Shown here: in pieces, positions 1 to 10,176 of the stretch | Numbering within the stretch: the first letter of the stretch is position 1 | Layout: the number at the start of each line of letters is the position of its first letter | The notes under the pieces: model-generated | The model's database searches: none | What the model saw: the letters and a program-made list of their open reading frames with translations, nothing else | What the model was told of the DNA's origin: nothing | Program-made: the position numbers and the translations under genes | Origin: a virus | Taxonomy: Duplodnaviria > Heunggongvirae > Uroviricota > Caudoviricetes | Reading direction: 5' to 3' (one strand) | Virus record (IMG/VR): IMGVR_UViG_2648501437_000009 | Length of the DNA stretch: 10,176 bases

Positions 1-24
1 TCGGCGAAGGTAAGTTGATGACTC

Positions 25-1443
25 ATGATGAACCCTGTTCCATGGCTCCAGATGACAAACATGATCTCATATCAGGGACTTGTTCGCACCTTCCCTAGTG
101 AACTTGCAAAACTGGAAAAGCTAAAGAATCAGTATTCAAAGGAAGAATATAATAATCTTATCGCTCAAATAAATGAGCGTTATAAAGATCCAAAGCAACC
201 AAAGGCGAAAGGTTATTCGGATGATGCTGCCCAACGAATGATTGATCATCTGAATCAACAGAATGCGTTACTAAGTTCACAAGCTGAATTGACCGTTAAA
301 TTAAGTTCCTCTGAACAGGAACTGGTTAAGTGGCGTCAGCAGATTGCCGACCTGGAGTCACGACCGTCATCGAAATTAACCCAGGATCAGAAATCGCTTC
401 TCTTACACCGGGAAGAAATAACCGCGTTGATGGAGAAAAATGTTGCGATTGAAAAAAATAACAGGCTAATCAAGGAATCCGCCGAAATAGCTGCATGGCG
501 TGATTCATTGCAGGCTTCGATTGATAATCGTCAACAGGGGTATGACATTCAGATTGCTGGTTATGGGGTTGGCGATAAAAATCAGCAACGCCAGCAGGAA
601 TTACTGCGGATTGAACGTGAATATAACAATCAGCGTCTGCAACTTGAACGTGACTATGCAGATAAATCCCGTGGAATGTCAAATCATGTTTTTCAGGAGA
701 AAATGCAGGCTCTGAATGATGCTCTGGAACGAGAAAAAGAAATTGTCAGCCAGATAAACGAGCAGCTCGATATTCAGGCAGGAGACTGGATTAGTGGTGC
801 CTCCCAGGGATTCAATAACTGGCTGGATGACACTAAGGATATCGGTGCGCAGATAAAATCAACCACGACTCAGATGTTTGGTGGGATGACCGATGCGCTA
901 GGTGATTTTGTCACGACAGGCAAGGCAAATTTTCGTTCTTTCGCGACTTCCGTGATTTCGGATCTTAGTCGAATAGCATTAAAGGCTTCAATTACTGGGA
1001 TTTTCGACAGCATTAGTAACAGTTCTTCCGGAGGGATTTTAGGAACTATCGGGAGTGCTATTAGTAAATTTATTCCGAATGCAAAGGGCGGTGTTTATGA
1101 GTCTCCGTCATTGAGCACGTATTCGAACGGTATTTATGATTCCCCGCAATTTTTTGCTTTTGCAAAAGGGGCTGGTGTTTTTGGTGAGGCTGGACCGGAA
1201 GCCATTATGCCATTAACACGAACTTCCGATGGTTCTCTTGGTGTCAGAGCTATTAATAGTAAAAGTGGTAATGGAGGCGGAGATATTACCTATGCCCCTG
1301 TATACCAAATCACTATTCAAAATGACGGCCAGAATGGAGAGATTGGCCCTCAGGCAATAAAAGCACTTATGGGGATGGTTGATCAGCGGGTGCAGGGCAA
1401 TCTGTTAAATATGCGACGTGATGGGGGAATGTTAAGTGGCTAA
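25..1443 (+). CDS. Tail tape measure protein, C-terminal ~470 codons (gpH-like); possibly truncated or disrupted at the 5' end
   Basis: ORF 25..1443. N-terminal half is charged, Q/E/K/R-rich and heptad-like (coiled-coil, typical of tape measure proteins); C-terminal half is Gly/Ser-rich, ending ...NDGQNGEIGPQAIKAL...MRRDGGMLSG, which resembles the lambda gpH C-terminus as I recall it. Sits immediately upstream of M-L-K-I-J. In-frame TGA TGA at 16..21 prevents upstream extension in this frame. Confidence 0.8.
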   Translation: MMNPVPWLQMTNMISYQGLVRTFPSELAKLEKLKNQYSKEEYNNLIAQINERYKDPKQPKAKGYSDDAAQRMIDHLNQQNALLSSQAELTVKLSSSEQELVKWRQQIADLESRPSSKLTQDQKSLLLHREEITALMEKNVAIEKNNRLIKESAEIAAWRDSLQASIDNRQQGYDIQIAGYGVGDKNQQRQQELLRIEREYNNQRLQLERDYADKSRGMSNHVFQEKMQALNDALEREKEIVSQINEQLDIQAGDWISGASQGFNNWLDDTKDIGAQIKSTTTQMFGGMTDALGDFVTTGKANFRSFATSVISDLSRIALKASITGIFDSISNSSSGGILGTIGSAISKFIPNAKGGVYESPSLSTYSNGIYDSPQFFAFAKGAGVFGEAGPEAIMPLTRTSDGSLGVRAINSKSGNGGGDITYAPVYQITIQNDGQNGEIGPQAIKALMGMVDQRVQGNLLNMRRDGGMLSG

Positions 1444-1774
1444 TACGGAAGAATTTCACTGGTTACCAGAGGATGGAATGAAAACAGAAAATAAACCATC
1501 GATAAAAACTGTAAGATTTGGCGATGGTTATGAGCAACGAAGTCCAAATGGACTTAATCATTCTCTGCGCGTTTTCACCTGTGATTTCAAAGTTGAGGCG
1601 AATGAACGTGATTCATTTGAAAAATTTTTAGCCCGGCATGAAGGCTATAAATCTTTTTTTTGGCGGCCGCCGGGTATTAACAGAAAAATCAGAGTGGTGT
1701 GTCGAACGTGGTCAGCGACAGAACATATCACCTATACCGATTTTTCGTGTCAGTTTGACGAAGTGGTGATCTGA
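1436..1774 (+). CDS. M: Tail tip protein M (minor tail protein M)
   Basis: ORF 1436..1774 (GTG start overlapping the upstream stop). A likelier start is the in-frame ATG at 1478, preceded by GAGGA at 1468..1472. Contains the VRFGDGYEQR and KSFFWRPP motifs matching the gpM family (recalled lambda M: VRFGDGYSQR, KSFLWTPP). About 100-110 aa, the expected size and position between the tape measure gene and L. Confidence 0.85.
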   Translation: MANTEEFHWLPEDGMKTENKPSIKTVRFGDGYEQRSPNGLNHSLRVFTCDFKVEANERDSFEKFLARHEGYKSFFWRPPGINRKIRVVCRTWSATEHITYTDFSCQFDEVVI

Positions 1775-2472: not shown

Positions 2473-3221
2473 ATCCCATGACAGAGACAGAATCAGCGAT
2501 TCTGGCGCACGCCCGGCGATGTGCGCCAGCGGAGTCGTGCGGCTTCGTGGTGAGAACGCCGGAGGGAGAAAGATATTTTCCCTGCGTGAATATCTCCGGT
2601 GAGCCGGAGGCGTATTTCCGGATGTCGCCGGAGGACTGGCTGAGTGCAGAAATGCAGGGTGAGATTGTGGCGCTGGTGCACAGCCATCCCGGTGATCTGC
2701 CCTGGCTGAGTGAGGCCGACCGGCGACTGCAGGTGCAGAGTGATTTGCCGTGGTGGCTGGTCTGCCGGGGGGCGATTCATAAGTTCCGCTGTGTGCCGCA
2801 TCTCACCGGGCGGCGCTTTGAGCACGGGGTGACGGACTGTTACACGCTGTTCCGGGACGCTTACCATCTGGCGGGGATTGAGATGCCGGATTTTCATCGC
2901 GGGGATGACTGGTGGCGTAACGGTCAGAATCTCTATCTGGATAATCTGGAGGCCACGGGGCTGTATCAGGTGCCGTTGTCATCAGCACAACCGGGCGATG
3001 TGCTGTTGTGCTGTTTTGGTTCATCGGTGCCGAATCATGCCGCCATTTACTGTGGTGACGGCGAGCTGCTGCACCATATTCCTGAACAACTGAGCAAACG
3101 AGAGAGGTATACCGACAAATGGCAGCGACGCACACACTCCCTCTGGCGTCACCGGGCATGGCACGCATCTGCCTTTACGGGGATTTACAACGATTTGGCC
3201 GCCGCATCGACCTTCGAGTGA
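2469..3221 (+). CDS. K: Tail tip assembly protein K (JAMM/MPN-like plus NlpC/P60-like domains)
   Basis: ORF 2469..3221 (GTG overlapping the L stop; alternative ATG at 2478 giving MTETESAIL...). Contains a JAMM-type motif HSHPGDLPWLSEAD and a downstream Cys/His region (DCYTLF...HH) typical of NlpC/P60 papain-like folds, the architecture described for lambda gpK. The 3' end overlaps gene I by about 100 nt in a different frame. Confidence 0.88.
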   Translation: MNPMTETESAILAHARRCAPAESCGFVVRTPEGERYFPCVNISGEPEAYFRMSPEDWLSAEMQGEIVALVHSHPGDLPWLSEADRRLQVQSDLPWWLVCRGAIHKFRCVPHLTGRRFEHGVTDCYTLFRDAYHLAGIEMPDFHRGDDWWRNGQNLYLDNLEATGLYQVPLSSAQPGDVLLCCFGSSVPNHAAIYCGDGELLHHIPEQLSKRERYTDKWQRRTHSLWRHRAWHASAFTGIYNDLAAASTFE

Positions 3222-3760
3222 AAACGGGGTCCGAAGCCATCCGGGCGCTGGCCATGCAGATCCCGGCATTTCGTCAGAAACTGAGCGACGGCTGGTACCA
3301 GGTACGCATTGCCGGGCGTGATGCAGGTGAAACCGAATTGTCTGCCCGTCTTAATGAGCCGCTGGAAAATGGTGCCGTGATCCATATCGTGCCGCGTCTG
3401 GCAGGAGCCAAAAGTGGCGGTGTGTTTCAGGCTGTGCTGGGGGCGGCTGTTATGGCGGTTGCTATATGGATGCCGGGGGTAGGAATTATGGCGAGTAATC
3501 TGCTGTTTTCTCTCGGTGCCAGTATGACGCTTGGCGGTGTTGCACAGATGCTGGCCCCTAAACCCAAAACCCCCCGCACACAGACAACGGATAACGGCAA
3601 ACAGAATACCTATTTTTCTTCACTGGATAACATGGTTGCCCAGGGCAATGTTCTGCCGGTTCTGTACGGTGAAATGCGCGTGGGGTCACGCGTGGTTTCT
3701 CAGGAGATCAGCACGGCAGACGAAGGGGATGGTGGTCAGGTTGTGGTGATTGGTCGCTGA
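3119..3760 (+). CDS. I: Tail tip assembly protein I
   Basis: ORF 3119..3760, 213 aa. MAATHTLPLASPGMARICLYGDLQRFGRRIDLRVKTG... followed by a hydrophobic Gly/Ala-rich segment and C-terminal ...NVLPVLYGEMRVGSRVVSQEISTADEGDGGQVVVIGR; matches the gpI family. Positioned between K and J. Confidence 0.9.
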   Translation: MAATHTLPLASPGMARICLYGDLQRFGRRIDLRVKTGSEAIRALAMQIPAFRQKLSDGWYQVRIAGRDAGETELSARLNEPLENGAVIHIVPRLAGAKSGGVFQAVLGAAVMAVAIWMPGVGIMASNLLFSLGASMTLGGVAQMLAPKPKTPRTQTTDNGKQNTYFSSLDNMVAQGNVLPVLYGEMRVGSRVVSQEISTADEGDGGQVVVIGR

Positions 3761-3778
3761 TACAAAATGTTTTATGTG

Positions 3779-3798
3779 AAACCGCCTCCGGGCGGTTT
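3779..3798 (+). promoter_or_regulatory. Perfect 8-bp stem / 4-nt loop hairpin in the I-J intergenic gap (possible weak terminator, attenuator or RNA stability element)
   Basis: AAACCGCC (3779..3786) - TCCG - GGCGGTTT (3791..3798) are exact reverse complements; followed by TATCGTTTAT (T-rich but interrupted), then GGAG at 3809..3812 and the J ATG at 3821. Confidence 0.4.
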
Positions 3799-3820
3799 TA
3801 TCGTTTATGGAGCATGACGA

Positions 3821-4798
3821 ATGGGTAAAGGCAGCAGTAAGGGGCATACCCCGCGCGAAGCGAAGGACAACCTGAAGTCCACGCAGCTGCTGAGTGTGAT
3901 CGATGCCATCAGCGAAGGGCCGGTTGAAGGTCCGGTGGATGGATTAAAAAGCGTGCTGCTGAACAGTACGCCGGTGCTGGACAGTGAGGGGAATACCAAT
4001 ATATCCGGCGTCACGGTGGTGTTCCGGGCAGGTGAGCAGGAGCAGACACCGCCGGAGGGATTTGAATCCTCCGGCTCCGAGACGGTGCTGGGTACGGAAG
4101 TGAAATATGACACGCCGATAACCCGGACCATCACGTCGGCAAACATTGACCGTCTGCGCCTGACCTTCGGTGTGCAGGCACTGGTGGAAACCACCTCAAA
4201 GGGGGACAGGAATCCGTCGGAAGTCCGCCTGCTGGTTCAGATACAGCGTAATGGTGGCTGGGTGACGGAAAAAGACATCACCATTAAGGGCAAAACCACC
4301 TCGCAGTATCTGGCCTCGGTGGTGGTGGATAACCTGCCGCCGCGCCCGTTTAATATCCGGATGCGCAGAATGACGCCGGACAGCACCACAGACCAGCTGC
4401 AGAACAAAACGCTCTGGTCGTCATACACCGAAATCATCGATGTGAAACAGGGCTACCCGAACACGGCACTGGTCGGCGTACAGGTGGATTCGGAGCAGTT
4501 CGGCAGCCAGCAGGTGAGCCGTAATTATCATCTGCGCGGACGCATTCTGCAGGTGCCGTCGAACTACAACCCGCAAAAACGGCACATACAGCGGTATCTG
4601 GGACGGAACGTTAAAACCAGCATACAGCAACAACACGGCCTGGTGTCTGTGGGATATGCTGACCCACCCGCGCTACGGCATGGGGAAACGTCTTGGTGCA
4701 GCGGATGTGGACAAATGGGCGCTGTATGTCATCGGCCAGCACTGCGACCAGTCGGTGCCGGACGGCTCTGGCGGCACGGAGCCGCGCATCACCTGTAA
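3821..4798 (+). CDS. J: J fragment 1 (N-terminal); J-like sequence ends near 4576, rest of the ORF is out-of-frame read-through
   Basis: ORF 3821..4798. After ...LQVPSNYNPQ the translation (KRHIQRYLGRNVKTSIQQQH...) loses J-like character while the +1 frame continues J. Confidence 0.6.
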   Translation: MGKGSSKGHTPREAKDNLKSTQLLSVIDAISEGPVEGPVDGLKSVLLNSTPVLDSEGNTNISGVTVVFRAGEQEQTPPEGFESSGSETVLGTEVKYDTPITRTITSANIDRLRLTFGVQALVETTSKGDRNPSEVRLLVQIQRNGGWVTEKDITIKGKTTSQYLASVVVDNLPPRPFNIRMRRMTPDSTTDQLQNKTLWSSYTEIIDVKQGYPNTALVGVQVDSEQFGSQQVSRNYHLRGRILQVPSNYNPQKRHIQRYLGRNVKTSIQQQHGLVSVGYADPPALRHGETSWCSGCGQMGAVCHRPALRPVGAGRLWRHGAAHHL

Positions 4799-5474
4799 TG
4801 CGTACCTGACCACACAGCGCAAGGCGTGGGATGTGCTCAGTGATTTCTGCTCGGCGATGCGCTGTATGCCGGTATGGAACGGGCAGACGCTGACGTTCGT
4901 GCAGGACCGACCGTCGGATAAGGTGTGGACCTATAACCGCAGTAATGTGGTGATGCCGGATGATGGCGCGCCGTTCCGCTACAGCTTCAGCGCCCTGAAA
5001 GACCGCCATAATGCCGTTGAGGTGAACTGGATTGACCCGAATAACGGCTGGGAGACGGCGACAGAGCTTGTGGAGGATACGCAGGCCATTGCCCGTTACG
5101 GTCGTAACGTCACGAAGATGGATGCCTTTGGCTGTACCAGCCGGGGGCAGGCACACCGCGCCGGGCTGTGGCTGATTAAAACAGAACTGCTGGAAACGCA
5201 GACCGTGGACTTCAGCGTGGGTGCCGAAGGGCTTCGCCATGTACCGGGCGATGTCATTGAAATCTGTGATGATGACTATGCCGGTATCAGCACCGGCGGG
5301 CGCGTGCTGGCGGTAAACAGCCAGACCCGGACGCTGACGCTCGACCGTGAAATCACGCTGCCATCTTCCGGCACCACGCTGATAAGCCTGGTTGACGGGA
5401 AGTGGCAATCCGATCAGCGTGGAGGTTCAGTCCGTCACCGACGGCGTGAAGGTGAAAGTGAGCCGTGTTCCTGA
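4656..5474 (+). CDS. J: J fragment 2 (central); J-like reading frame actually begins near 4581 and ends near 5399
   Basis: ORF 4656..5474 from first ATG ([28 protein letters not shown]...). The same frame is open and J-like upstream from about 4581 (GTYSGIWDGTLKPAYSNNTAWCLWD). After ...LISLVDG the tail ([24 protein letters not shown]) is out-of-frame read-through. Confidence 0.6.
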
Positions 5475-7302
5475 CGGCGTTGCTGAATACAGCGTGTGGG
5501 GGCTGAAGCTGCCGACGTTGCGCCAGCGCCTGTTCCGCTGCGTGAGTATCCGTGAGAACGACGACGGCACGTATGCCATCACCGCCGTGCAGCATGTGCC
5601 GGAAAAAGAGGCCATCGTGGATAACGGGGCGCACTTTGACGGCGACCAGAGCGGCACGGTGAATGGTGTCACGCCGCCAGCGGTGCAGCACCTGACCGCA
5701 GAAGTCACCGCAGACAGCGGGGAATATCAGGTGCTGGCGCGCTGGGACACGCCGAAGGTGGTGAAGGGCGTGAGCTTCATGCTTCGCCTGACCGTGGCAG
5801 CGGACGACGGCAGTGAGCGGCTGGTCAGCACGGCCCGGACGACGGAAACCACATACCGCTTCACGCAACTGGCGCTGGGGAACTACAGGCTGACAGTCCG
5901 GGCGGTAAATGCGTGGGGGCAGCAGGGCGATCCGGCGTCGGTATCGTTCCGGATTGCCGCACCGGCAGCACCGTCGCGGATTGAGCTGACGCCGGGCTAT
6001 TTTCAGATAACCGCAACGCCGCATCTTGCCGTTTATGATCCGACGGTACAGTTTGAGTTCTGGTTCTCGGAAAAGCGGATTACCGATATCAGGCAGGTTG
6101 AAACCACAGCCCGCTATCTTGGTACGGCGCTGTACTGGATAGCTGCCAGTATCAATATCAGGCCGGGCCATGATTATTATTTTTATATCCGCAGTGTGAA
6201 TACCGTTGGCAAATCGGCATTCGTGGAGGCTGTTGGTCAGCCGAGTGATGATGCATCCGGTTATCTGGATTTTTTCAAAGGCGAGATAGGGAAAACCCAT
6301 CTGGCTCATGAGCTGTGGACGCAGATTGATAACGGTCAGCTTGCGCCTGACCTGGCTGAAATCAGGACGTCCATTACGGATGTCAGCAATGAAATCACGC
6401 AGACCGTCAATAAGAAACTGGAAGACCAGAGTGCGGCAATTCAGCAGATACAGAAGGTTCAGGTTGATACAAATAATAACCTGAACAGCATGTGGGCTGT
6501 GAAGCTGCAGCAGATGCAGGACGGACGCCTTTATATCGCGGGTATTGGTGCCGGTATTGAGAACACCCCTGACGGCATGCAGAGTCAGGTGCTGCTGGCG
6601 GCGGACAGGATTGCGATGATTAATCCTGCGAATGGCAACACAAAACCGATGTTTGTTGGTCAGGGCGATCAGATATTCATGAACGAAGTGTTCCTGAAAT
6701 ATCTGACGGCTCCCACCATTACCAGCGGCGGTAATCCTCCGACATTTTCCCTGACACCGGACGGGCGGCTGACGGCGAAAAATGCCGATATCAGCGGTAA
6801 CGTGAATGCGAACTCCGGGACGCTCAATAATGTCACGATTAACCAGAACTGTCGGATTATGGGAAAGCTGTCTGTCAACCAGATTGAAGGCGATATTGTC
6901 AAAACAGTGGGTAAGGCTTTCCCGCGGGACTCCCGGGCACCGGAGCGGTGGCCATCAGGGACCATTACCGTCAGGATTTATGACGATCAGCCGTTTGACC
7001 GGCAGATTGTTATTCCGGCGGTGGCATTCAGCGGCGCTAAACATGAGAGAGAGCATACTGATATTTACTCCTCATGCCGTCTGATAGTGCGGAAAAACGG
7101 TGCTGAAATTTATAACCGTACCGCGCTGGATAATACGCTGATTTACAGTGGCGTTATTGATATGCCTGCCGGTCACGGTCACATGACGCTGGAGTTTTCG
7201 GTATCAGCATGGCTGGTGAATGACTGGTATCCCACAGCAAGTATCAGCGATTTGCTGGTTGTGGTGATGAAGAAAGCCACCGCAGGCATCAGTATCAGTT
7301 GA
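5392..7302 (+). CDS. J: J fragment 3 (C-terminal, includes the presumed receptor-binding region)
   Basis: ORF 5392..7302 (TTG at 5392 is an ORF-caller start; J frame resumes at about 5401 with [26 protein letters not shown]). 636 codons uninterrupted to the stop at 7300..7302. Confidence 0.65.
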
Positions 7303-7969: not shown

Positions 7970-7995
7970 TTAGCCAGGTAACACAGTGTTATGGC

Positions 7996-8022
7996 AGCCC
8001 GCAGATTCTGGCGGGCTTTTTT
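7996..8022 (+). terminator. Rho-independent terminator downstream of lom
   Basis: AGCCCGC (7996..8002) - 8-nt loop - GCGGGCT (8011..8017), followed by a T-run (8017..8022). Lies 27 nt after the lom stop and 12 nt before the stf ATG. Confidence 0.75.
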
Positions 8023-8033
8023 GTGGGGTGAAT

Positions 8034-10176
8034 ATGGCAGTAAAGATTTCAGGTGTACTGAAAGACGGTGCAGGTAAACCGATACAGAACTGCACAATCC
8101 AGCTGAAAGCAAAACGTAACAGCACCACGGTGGTGGTGAACACGGTGGCCTCAGAAAATCCGGATGAAGCCGGGCGTTACAGCATGGACGTTGAGTACGG
8201 TCAGTACAGCGTTATTCTGTTGGTGGAGGGATTCCCGCCGTCACATGCCGGGACCATCACCGTGTATGAAGACTCCCAACCCGGTACGCTGAATGATTTT
8301 CTTGGTGCCATGACGGAGGATGATGCCCGTCCGGAGGCACTGCGCCGTTTTGAACTGATGGTGGAAGAGGTGGCGCGTAACGCGTCCGCAGTGGCACAGA
8401 ACACGGCAGCCGCGAAGAAGTCAGCCAGCGATGCCGGCACATCAGCCCGTGAGGCGGCAACTCATGCAACCGATGCTGCAGGCTCAGCACGTGCCGCCAG
8501 CACGTCAGCCGGACAGGCCGCGTCGTCGGCTCAGTCAGCATCTTCCAGCGCAGGAACGGCATCAACAAAGGCCACTGAAGCATCAAAAAGTGCTGCCGCT
8601 GCAGAGTCTTCAAAAAGCGCGGCTGCCACCAGTGCCGGTGCCGCGTCAACAAGTGCCGGGCAGGCCTCAGCCAGTGCCACCGCCGCCGGAAAATCGGCAG
8701 AAAGCGCCGCCTCGTCCGCTTCAACAGCCACAACGAAGGCTGGCGAAGCCACTGAACAGGCCAGCGCAGCAGCGAGGTCTGCTTCCGCAGCGAAGACATC
8801 TGAGACGAATGCGAAAGCGTCGGAAACCCGTGCAGAATCCTCAAAAACGGCAGCCGCATCGTCCGCCAGTTCGGCGGCGTCATCGGCATCATCTGCGTCT
8901 GCTTCAAAAGATGAGGCGACCAGACAGGCGTCAGCAGCAAAGGGCAGCGCCACGACGGCATCCACGAAGGCGACAGAGGCAGCTGGCAGTGCGACGGCGG
9001 CAGCTCAGAGCAAAAGTACGGCGGAATCCGCGGCAACGCGCGCCGAGACAGCGGCAAAACGGGCAGAGGATATTGCATCCGCCGTGGCGCTTGAGGATGC
9101 AAGTACGACGAAAAAGGGGATAGTACAGCTCAGCAGTGCGACCAACAGCACTTCCGAGTCACTGGCGGCAACGCCAAAGGCAGTAAAAGCAGCCAATGAC
9201 AATGCTGAGAAACGTCTGCAGAAAGATCAGAACGGTGCGGATATCCCTGGCAAAGACACCTTTACGAAAAATATTGGTGCCTGCCGTGCCTTCGGTGGGT
9301 CAGTAAGCACAACAACAGGAAACTGGACGACTGCACAGTTTATCGAGTGGCTGGATTCTCAGGGAGCATTTAACCATCCATACTGGATGTGCAAGGGTTC
9401 CTGGTCTTATGGCAATAATAAAATCATTACTGATACTGGCTGCGGTAATATTCATCTCGCCGGAGCTGTCATTGAAGTAATGGGGATAAAGTCAGCGATG
9501 ACGATCCGCATTACCACACCGACCACCTCCACTGGTGGTGGAACAACTAACGCCCAGTTTACCTATATTAATCACGGAACAGATTATTCACCTGGCTGGC
9601 GAAGGGACTATAACTCCAGAAATAAGCCAACGGCATCAGAGATCGGGGCGTTACCGTCAGGTGGAACAGCAGTATCATCAGTTAATTTGTCTTCAAAAGG
9701 TCGGGTAACCGCGCTGACAGACAATACGCAGGGGGCAACAGGTCTTGAGTTATACGAGGTGTATAACAACGGATATCCAACAGCGTATGGAAATATCATT
9801 CACCTGAAAGGGATGACAGCCGTTGGCGAAGGTGAGTTACTCATCGGCTGGAGTGGTACAAGCGGTGCTCATGCTCCGGCATTTATTCGTTCACGACGGG
9901 ATACGACCGACGCAAACTGGTCGCCGTGGGCGCAGCTTTACACCTCGGCTCATCCTCCTGCAGAGTTTTATCCAGTCGGTGCACCAATCCCGTGGCCATC
10001 AGATACCGTTCCGTCTGGTTATGCCCTGATGCAGGGGCAGACTTTTGACAAATCTGCTTACCCGAAACTTGCAGTTGCTTATCCGTCAGGCGTTATTCCT
10101 GATATGCGTGGCTGGACGATTAAGGGCAAGCCCGGCAGTGGTCGTGCCGTATTGTCTCAGGAACAGGACGGCATTA
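8034..10176 (+). CDS. stf: Side tail fibre protein Stf (partial, 3' end beyond window)
   Basis: ATG at 8034 with GGGGTG upstream. I translated the frame by hand: open to the window end with no stop (missing from the ORF track because there is no stop in-window). N-terminus [60 protein letters not shown] matches the lambda Stf N-terminus from memory. Followed by a long Ala/Ser-rich tract, the [26 protein letters not shown] motif, and a distal [37 protein letters not shown] motif typical of enterobacterial phage tail-fibre C-terminal regions. Confidence 0.9.
8380..9080 (+). repeat. Degenerate Ala/Ser/Thr-rich low-complexity repeat tract within stf (fibre shaft)
   Basis: About 230 codons dominated by A, S, T, K, E in recurring short units (e.g. 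SAxSAxxASxSA, [21 protein letters not shown]). GC-rich and stop-poor in several frames on both strands, which generates the long overlapping shadow ORFs 8257..9102(-), 8531..8965(-) and 8431..9123(+). Confidence 0.6.

Follow-up and report, generated by a model that had tools for sequence, protein, structure and literature searches.

Among the prophage genes of Escherichia coli that are interrupted by an insertion sequence is lomR, in the Rac prophage of strain K-12, where the inserted element is IS5. This element belongs to the IS5 group of the IS5 family and is represented in K-12 by the insH copies. The target duplication that it generates has the motif 5'-YTAR-3' (PMC5009759). The tail tape-measure proteins, the products of the genes considered here, have their reference point in gpH of phage lambda, whose gene lies directly upstream of M, L, K, I and J.

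The DNA that we have analysed, referred to throughout as the window, is 10176 bp long and constitutes the entire draft contig JHSO01000113.1 of the E. coli assembly GCA_001266005.1; an exact match to the 472-residue protein encoded at its start was found on this one contig. The window shares with IS5 the same 94-nt terminus and the 16-bp inverted repeat, next to which it has one CTAG, a sequence of the YTAR type. The outcome is that of other IS5-interrupted prophage genes, namely insertional inactivation of a late gene in a cryptic lambdoid prophage, and we find no mechanistic difference from IS5 insertions elsewhere; what differs is the target, a tape-measure gene in a Rac-like prophage, and that the window contains only the last 94 nt of IS5. 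The splitting of a prophage tape-measure gene by IS5 is an ordinary and already known kind of gene disruption.

The window begins in the left end of IS5

The left end of IS5 occupies bases 1..94 of the window, as the reverse complement (minus strand), so that contig and window alike begin inside the element. These 94 bases match, base for base, the IS5 end found in strain ECSC054 (6001..6094 of locus L001), and hundreds of genomes, K-12 MG1655 included, contain annotated IS5 copies to which the segment 1..98 is 100% identical. A megablast search of 5426 complete E. coli genomes with 1..98 as the query returned 7315 places in 1527 genomes, many of them at 100% identity; among the matches listed, every one falls in a feature with the annotation 'IS5-like element IS5 family transposase'. 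Measured against the reference IS5 copies, the terminus has the near-identity of a member of this group.

The 16-bp terminal inverted repeat (IRL) occupies 79..94 on the minus strand. The reverse complement of these bases, GGAAGGTGCGAACAAG, conforms to the pattern GGAAGGTGCGAA(C/T)AAG, and homology to the uninterrupted gene sets in at the very next base. There, at 95..98, stands CTAG, which would be one copy of the 4-bp target-site duplication of IS5 and is at the same time the first of the tape-measure sequence; it fits YTAR, the motif of IS5 targets (PMC5009759). The contig ends before the second copy of the duplication would be reached. Both copies are present in ECSC054 and in strain GPEC548, where CTAG flanks the insertion sequence on both sides. 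The ECSC054 element at this site (L001) is exactly 1195 bp in length, is bounded by 16-bp terminal repeats, GGAAGGTGCGAATAAG at one end and GGAAGGTGCGAACAAG at the other, and encodes a 326-residue transposase with the Pfam domains DDE_Tnp_1 and DUF772. The 94 nt of IS5 in the window cover the first 8 codons of insH from the RefSeq-annotated start, a minus-strand ATG at 26..24, or 20 codons from an alternative upstream ATG at 62..60; the corresponding translations are MSHQLTFA and MFVIWSHGTGFIMSHQLTFA.

An earlier sequence-only reading had drawn attention to an ATG at 25, to tandem stops TGA TGA at 16..21 and to a different frame, starting at position 3, that is open from the window edge to a TAG at 96..98. 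All three were confirmed when bases 1..100 were read again; the ATG, the tandem stops and the opening of frame 3 lie within IS5, and none of them belongs to tape-measure sequence. Direct reading and the open reading frame call agree that the 472-residue tape-measure frame spans 25..1443 on the plus strand with its ATG at 25..27. The TGA TGA (16..21, plus strand) stands in the frame of this ATG, outside the tape-measure gene, and is the antisense of TCATCA in insH codons 2-4 (AGT CAT CAA). The open stretch in frame 3 (3..98, plus strand) is the 3'-terminal section of an open frame, 83 codons long, in antisense to the 5' region of insH; its translation from base 3 is GEGKLMTHDEPCSMAPDDKHDLISGTCSHLP, followed by the stop TAG at 96..98, which is supplied by the CTAG target duplication. 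The openness of this frame had been put down, as one option, to chance; it has a specific cause, since 1..94 is entirely IS5. A Pfam search with the frame-3 peptide gave no match, there is no evidence of a coding role for the frame and we reject that reading. In ECSC054 the 83-codon antisense frame runs over L001 5847..6098, its end corresponding to window 3..98; it crosses the left terminal repeat on leaving IS5 and meets its first stop in the TAG of a CTAG target.

The 472-residue frame is the end of a longer gene

The intact tape-measure gene of E. coli O78 strain 3 (L002) has 3234 nt and encodes 1077 amino acids. The sequence-only reading had called for an alignment to intact tape-measure genes. 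In such an alignment, comprising the window, the intact L002 gene and two interrupted genes, the first base with DNA homology to the intact gene is 95, the C of CTAG, and no intact tape-measure gene is homologous to bases 1..94; many of the megablast matches to window 1..1500 likewise start at 95. Bases 95..96 are the last two of tape-measure codon 629, and 97..1443 (plus strand) is the C-terminal remnant of the gene, codons 630..1077 of 1077. At the protein level, BLASTP matches residues 25..472 of the window frame to residues 630..1077 of the intact protein with 98% identity, the identity starting at Ser25, which is Ser630, and the intact genes are continuous over the insertion site, reading ...QQRA|SELAKLEK. 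The 24 codons that precede Ser25 (25..96, plus strand; MMNPVPWLQMTNMISYQGLVRTFP) are spurious, being antisense IS5 fused in frame to the tape-measure remnant.

The domain content agrees with this boundary. The 472-residue frame contains the C-terminal domains PF24622 (6e-25) and PF09718 (7.7e-26), that is, TMP_4 and Tape_meas_lam_C, while TMP_2, which in the intact 1077-residue protein occupies residues 267-471 ahead of these two, was not found in it by the Pfam search. The frame thus neither possesses TMP_2 nor aligns from end to end with a full-length tape measure, and the remnant, at 448 codons, represents 42% of the protein. Deposited phage records hold full-length 1077-aa homologues with about 98% identity. 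We take the native length to be 1077 residues. The earlier view that 472 residues would be unusually short is borne out by these far longer intact relatives, and the product is not a full-length tape measure, aligning as it does only to residues 630..1077.

With its TMP_4 and Tape_meas_lam_C domains and its position directly upstream of homologues of M, L, K, I and J, the remnant resembles lambda H, but it lacks the TMP_2 domain and all else before residue 630. The downstream genes in the contig carry Phage_min_tail, Phage_tail_L, NLPC_P60, Lambda_tail_I and GpJ domains and follow in the M-L-K-I-J order. In relatives, ydaY lies upstream of the tape-measure gene, which fits a Rac-like prophage. 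The window remnant has a second CTAG, at 898..901, created by a single-nucleotide difference at 900 and missing from the intact O78 allele; it is an unoccupied potential IS5 target.

Proposed origin of the junction

We propose that IS5 (1195 bp, with a DDE transposase) inserted at a CTAG in the tape-measure gene of a Rac-like lambdoid E. coli prophage, between codons 629 and 630 of 1077, and that CTAG was duplicated in the process. The window would then consist of the last 94 bp of IS5 (its left end, reversed), one CTAG and the C-terminal 448 codons. A chance ATG in antisense IS5, in frame with the remnant, would lead open reading frame finders and RefSeq to report a 472-aa 'tape measure protein'. 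Had the insertion been a simple one, the N-terminal half should end ...GCAGCAGAGAGCTAG and run on into GGAAGGTGCGAATAAG, the right end of IS5; the junction on that side would read GCAGCAGAGAGCTAGGGAAGGTGCGAATAAG, with about 1.9 kb of tape-measure N-terminal coding sequence and ydaY before it.

Multicopy repeats such as IS5 are the places where assemblers commonly break short-read contigs. The window, being an entire draft contig, was broken in such a repeat, which accounts for its start 94 nt inside the element, and because the break falls inside IS5 the N-terminal half, if retained, must be on another contig. Overall, we consider it very probable that transposition of IS5 into the tape-measure CTAG, with the gene split and the contig broken inside IS5, explains how the window starts. 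The suspicion that the gene is interrupted somewhere within 1-98 is thereby upheld, in the form of an IS5 end, a CTAG and a break in homology at 95. By analogy with other genomes, the N-terminal half would be expected to lie intact on the other side of the insertion sequence in this strain too, together with the second CTAG. It is possible that the IS5 here is truncated or rearranged, 94 nt of it being in view.

At the opposite end of the contig, the last open reading frame (7986..10176, 730 codons) has no stop before the contig 3' end; annotation of its neighbours indicates the N-terminal region of a tail-fibre or stfR-like protein. This open frame suggests that the other contig end probably also falls in sequence repeated among prophages.

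The interrupted site in other genomes

In ECSC054 both flanks of the insertion can be read. The order is an N-terminal pseudogene (3011..4903, 629 codons), CTAG, IS5, CTAG and a C-terminal pseudogene, followed by M, L, K, I and J in the same order as in the window; the IS5 transposase is on the strand opposite to the tape-measure gene. GPEC548 has the same split into 629 and 448 codons, with CTAG on both sides of an ISKpn26 (L003 3820..5016) in the opposite orientation. Comparable complete genomes have the N-terminal portion across the insertion sequence, 1195 bp farther upstream; inspection of two of them, ECSC054 and GPEC548, confirmed the 629-codon half and both copies of CTAG. RefSeq annotation at the FDAARGOS_1249 match shows an IS5-family transposase with a piece of the tape-measure gene on either side. 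An unrelated metagenome contig (L005) approaches the junction from the other side: it finishes with the N-terminal half, then CTAG and lastly 138 nt of the right end of IS5. A search with the ECSC054 N-terminal fragment extended by read-through into the insertion sequence returned a 665-residue twin (P0001) from an unrelated ENA metagenome contig; an N-terminal fragment from GCA_001266005.1 was not found in the protein-cluster listing.

Junction-specific searches of the 5426 complete E. coli genomes showed the site to be uninterrupted in 704. An IS5-family element occupies the CTAG in 8 of about 712 complete genomes that have the gene segment, four in each orientation and with a mix of IS5 and ISKpn26. 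Among the four with the junction orientation of the window, the junction sequence of ECSC054 is 99% identical to that of the window and those of the other three are 92-94% identical; of these three genomes, H1 and GDSC2239PM have elements annotated as ISKpn26 and 19KM1803 one annotated as IS5. In the opposite orientation, GPEC548, OW1E2, FDAARGOS_1249 and SCU-316 carry IS5-family elements at exactly the same CTAG. The ISKpn26 insertions, of which that in GPEC548 is an example, share with the window the nucleotide position, the CTAG target and the 629/448-codon split, but they involve a different member of the IS5 family; the window has IS5 proper, oriented as in ECSC054. The best match to the whole window among the complete E. 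coli genomes is 95.7% identical and has the site intact.

Alternative explanations

One alternative to a simple insertion is that an IS5-associated deletion or rearrangement, for example recombination between two IS5 copies, has removed the N-terminal half from the other side of the element, leaving only the C-terminal remnant. The upstream side lies outside the window, which is the whole contig, and the prophage appears to be decaying, its J gene being frameshifted twice; the Rac prophage of K-12, which is heavily deleted, offers a parallel. IS-mediated rearrangements are moreover common in E. coli (PMC5009759). Set against this are ECSC054, GPEC548 and the metagenome contig, each of which keeps the 629-codon half directly against the insertion sequence with the CTAG duplication, as well as the two tape-measure pieces around the transposase in FDAARGOS_1249. 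We regard a deletion as improbable, although it is the least improbable of the alternatives. A misassembly, in which an IS5 end was wrongly joined to tape-measure sequence, might be suspected because errors are frequent at the ends of draft contigs and no more than 94 nt of IS5 are present, but the junction falls exactly at the IS5 terminus with a canonical CTAG next to it, and the identical junction recurs in four complete genomes and its mirror image in four more. Such an artefact is very unlikely.

Two further explanations, both contained in the sequence-only reading, seem to us to have almost no chance of being correct. According to one, a nonsense or frameshift mutation disrupted the gene, an upstream part of the protein being encoded in frame 3 and ending at 96..98. 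Frame 3 is indeed open from the window edge to 98, and J, in the same window, does have frameshifts. The frame is nevertheless antisense to insH, its peptide lacks a Pfam match, tape-measure homology stops at 95 and the intact genes read without a break through the site; this mechanism was rejected on the alignment break at 95 together with the 100% IS5 identity of 1..94, the terminal repeat at 79..94 and the CTAG at 95..98 identifying an IS5 insertion in its place. The other explanation is that of a genuinely short, complete gene of 472 codons with its own start at 25, for which the uninterrupted frame with an ATG and the existence of a RefSeq protein, WP_288143924.1, could be cited. This is refuted by the location of the ATG and the first 24 codons in antisense IS5, and the missing TMP_2, the alignment confined to residues 630..1077 of 1077 and the 704 complete genomes with an uninterrupted site all speak against it. 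So do the expression signals: a consensus scan detected no sigma-70-like promoter reading out of this IS5 end, and the nearest Shine-Dalgarno-like sequence, GAAGG, is poorly spaced, at 14 nt from the ATG. Given the outcome of the promoter scan, we do not suggest that the remnant is expressed.

Annotation of the remnant and prophage decay

The RefSeq entry for the reading frame, WP_288143924.1, is named 'phage tail tape measure protein [Escherichia coli]' and has 472 residues. It is an annotation artefact, a chimera in which 24 codons of antisense IS5 precede the remnant of a gene; in complete genomes the same remnant is marked as a pseudogene by PGAP. The entry should carry a pseudogene-fragment flag. 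The value of this correction is mainly one of annotation hygiene, as contig ends inside insertion sequences can mimic unusual gene starts.

A gene disrupted in this way is unable to produce a complete tape measure, in keeping with the decay of the prophage, and the remnant itself is, judging from its sequence, most probably a non-functional pseudogene fragment in a Rac-like prophage undergoing decay. We see in it one more case of IS-driven decay in a cryptic lambdoid prophage. Elsewhere in the window, the tail-tip gene J (3821..7302) is split into three open reading frames, 3821..4798, 4755..5474 and 5419..7302. Compared with J of ECSC054, which is intact and 95% identical, it has two 1-nt insertions, near 4585 and near 5397 (GGG as against GG), which could be genuine decay mutations or draft-sequencing errors.

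Repeated use of the target site

The differing sequences on the IS side and the two orientations indicate at least three independent insertions at this CTAG. The window remnant differs from that of ECSC054 at 22 of 1406 positions and from the intact O78 allele at only 6, and, being nearer to the O78 allele, it may record yet another independent event. The intact 3234-nt gene contains 44 YTAR sites, and the one that is used, at nucleotide 1886, is its sole CTAG; the frequency of this tetranucleotide in E. coli coding DNA is low, 0.14 per kb (PMC5009759).

It is conceivable, though we are inclined to doubt it, that the CTAG at nucleotide 1886 is a true recurrent hot spot for IS5-family elements, used beyond what the YTAR motif predicts. 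The suggestion draws on the three or more independent events, which involve IS5 and ISKpn26-type elements in both orientations and in different tape-measure alleles, and on the insertion in the present strain. Were it true, it would imply a preference rooted in local DNA structure or else selection for the loss of tail assembly in the resident prophage. As matters stand, the repeated use of this CTAG is mildly notable, a minor curiosity that fits known IS5 behaviour and marks the site as a candidate for target preference.
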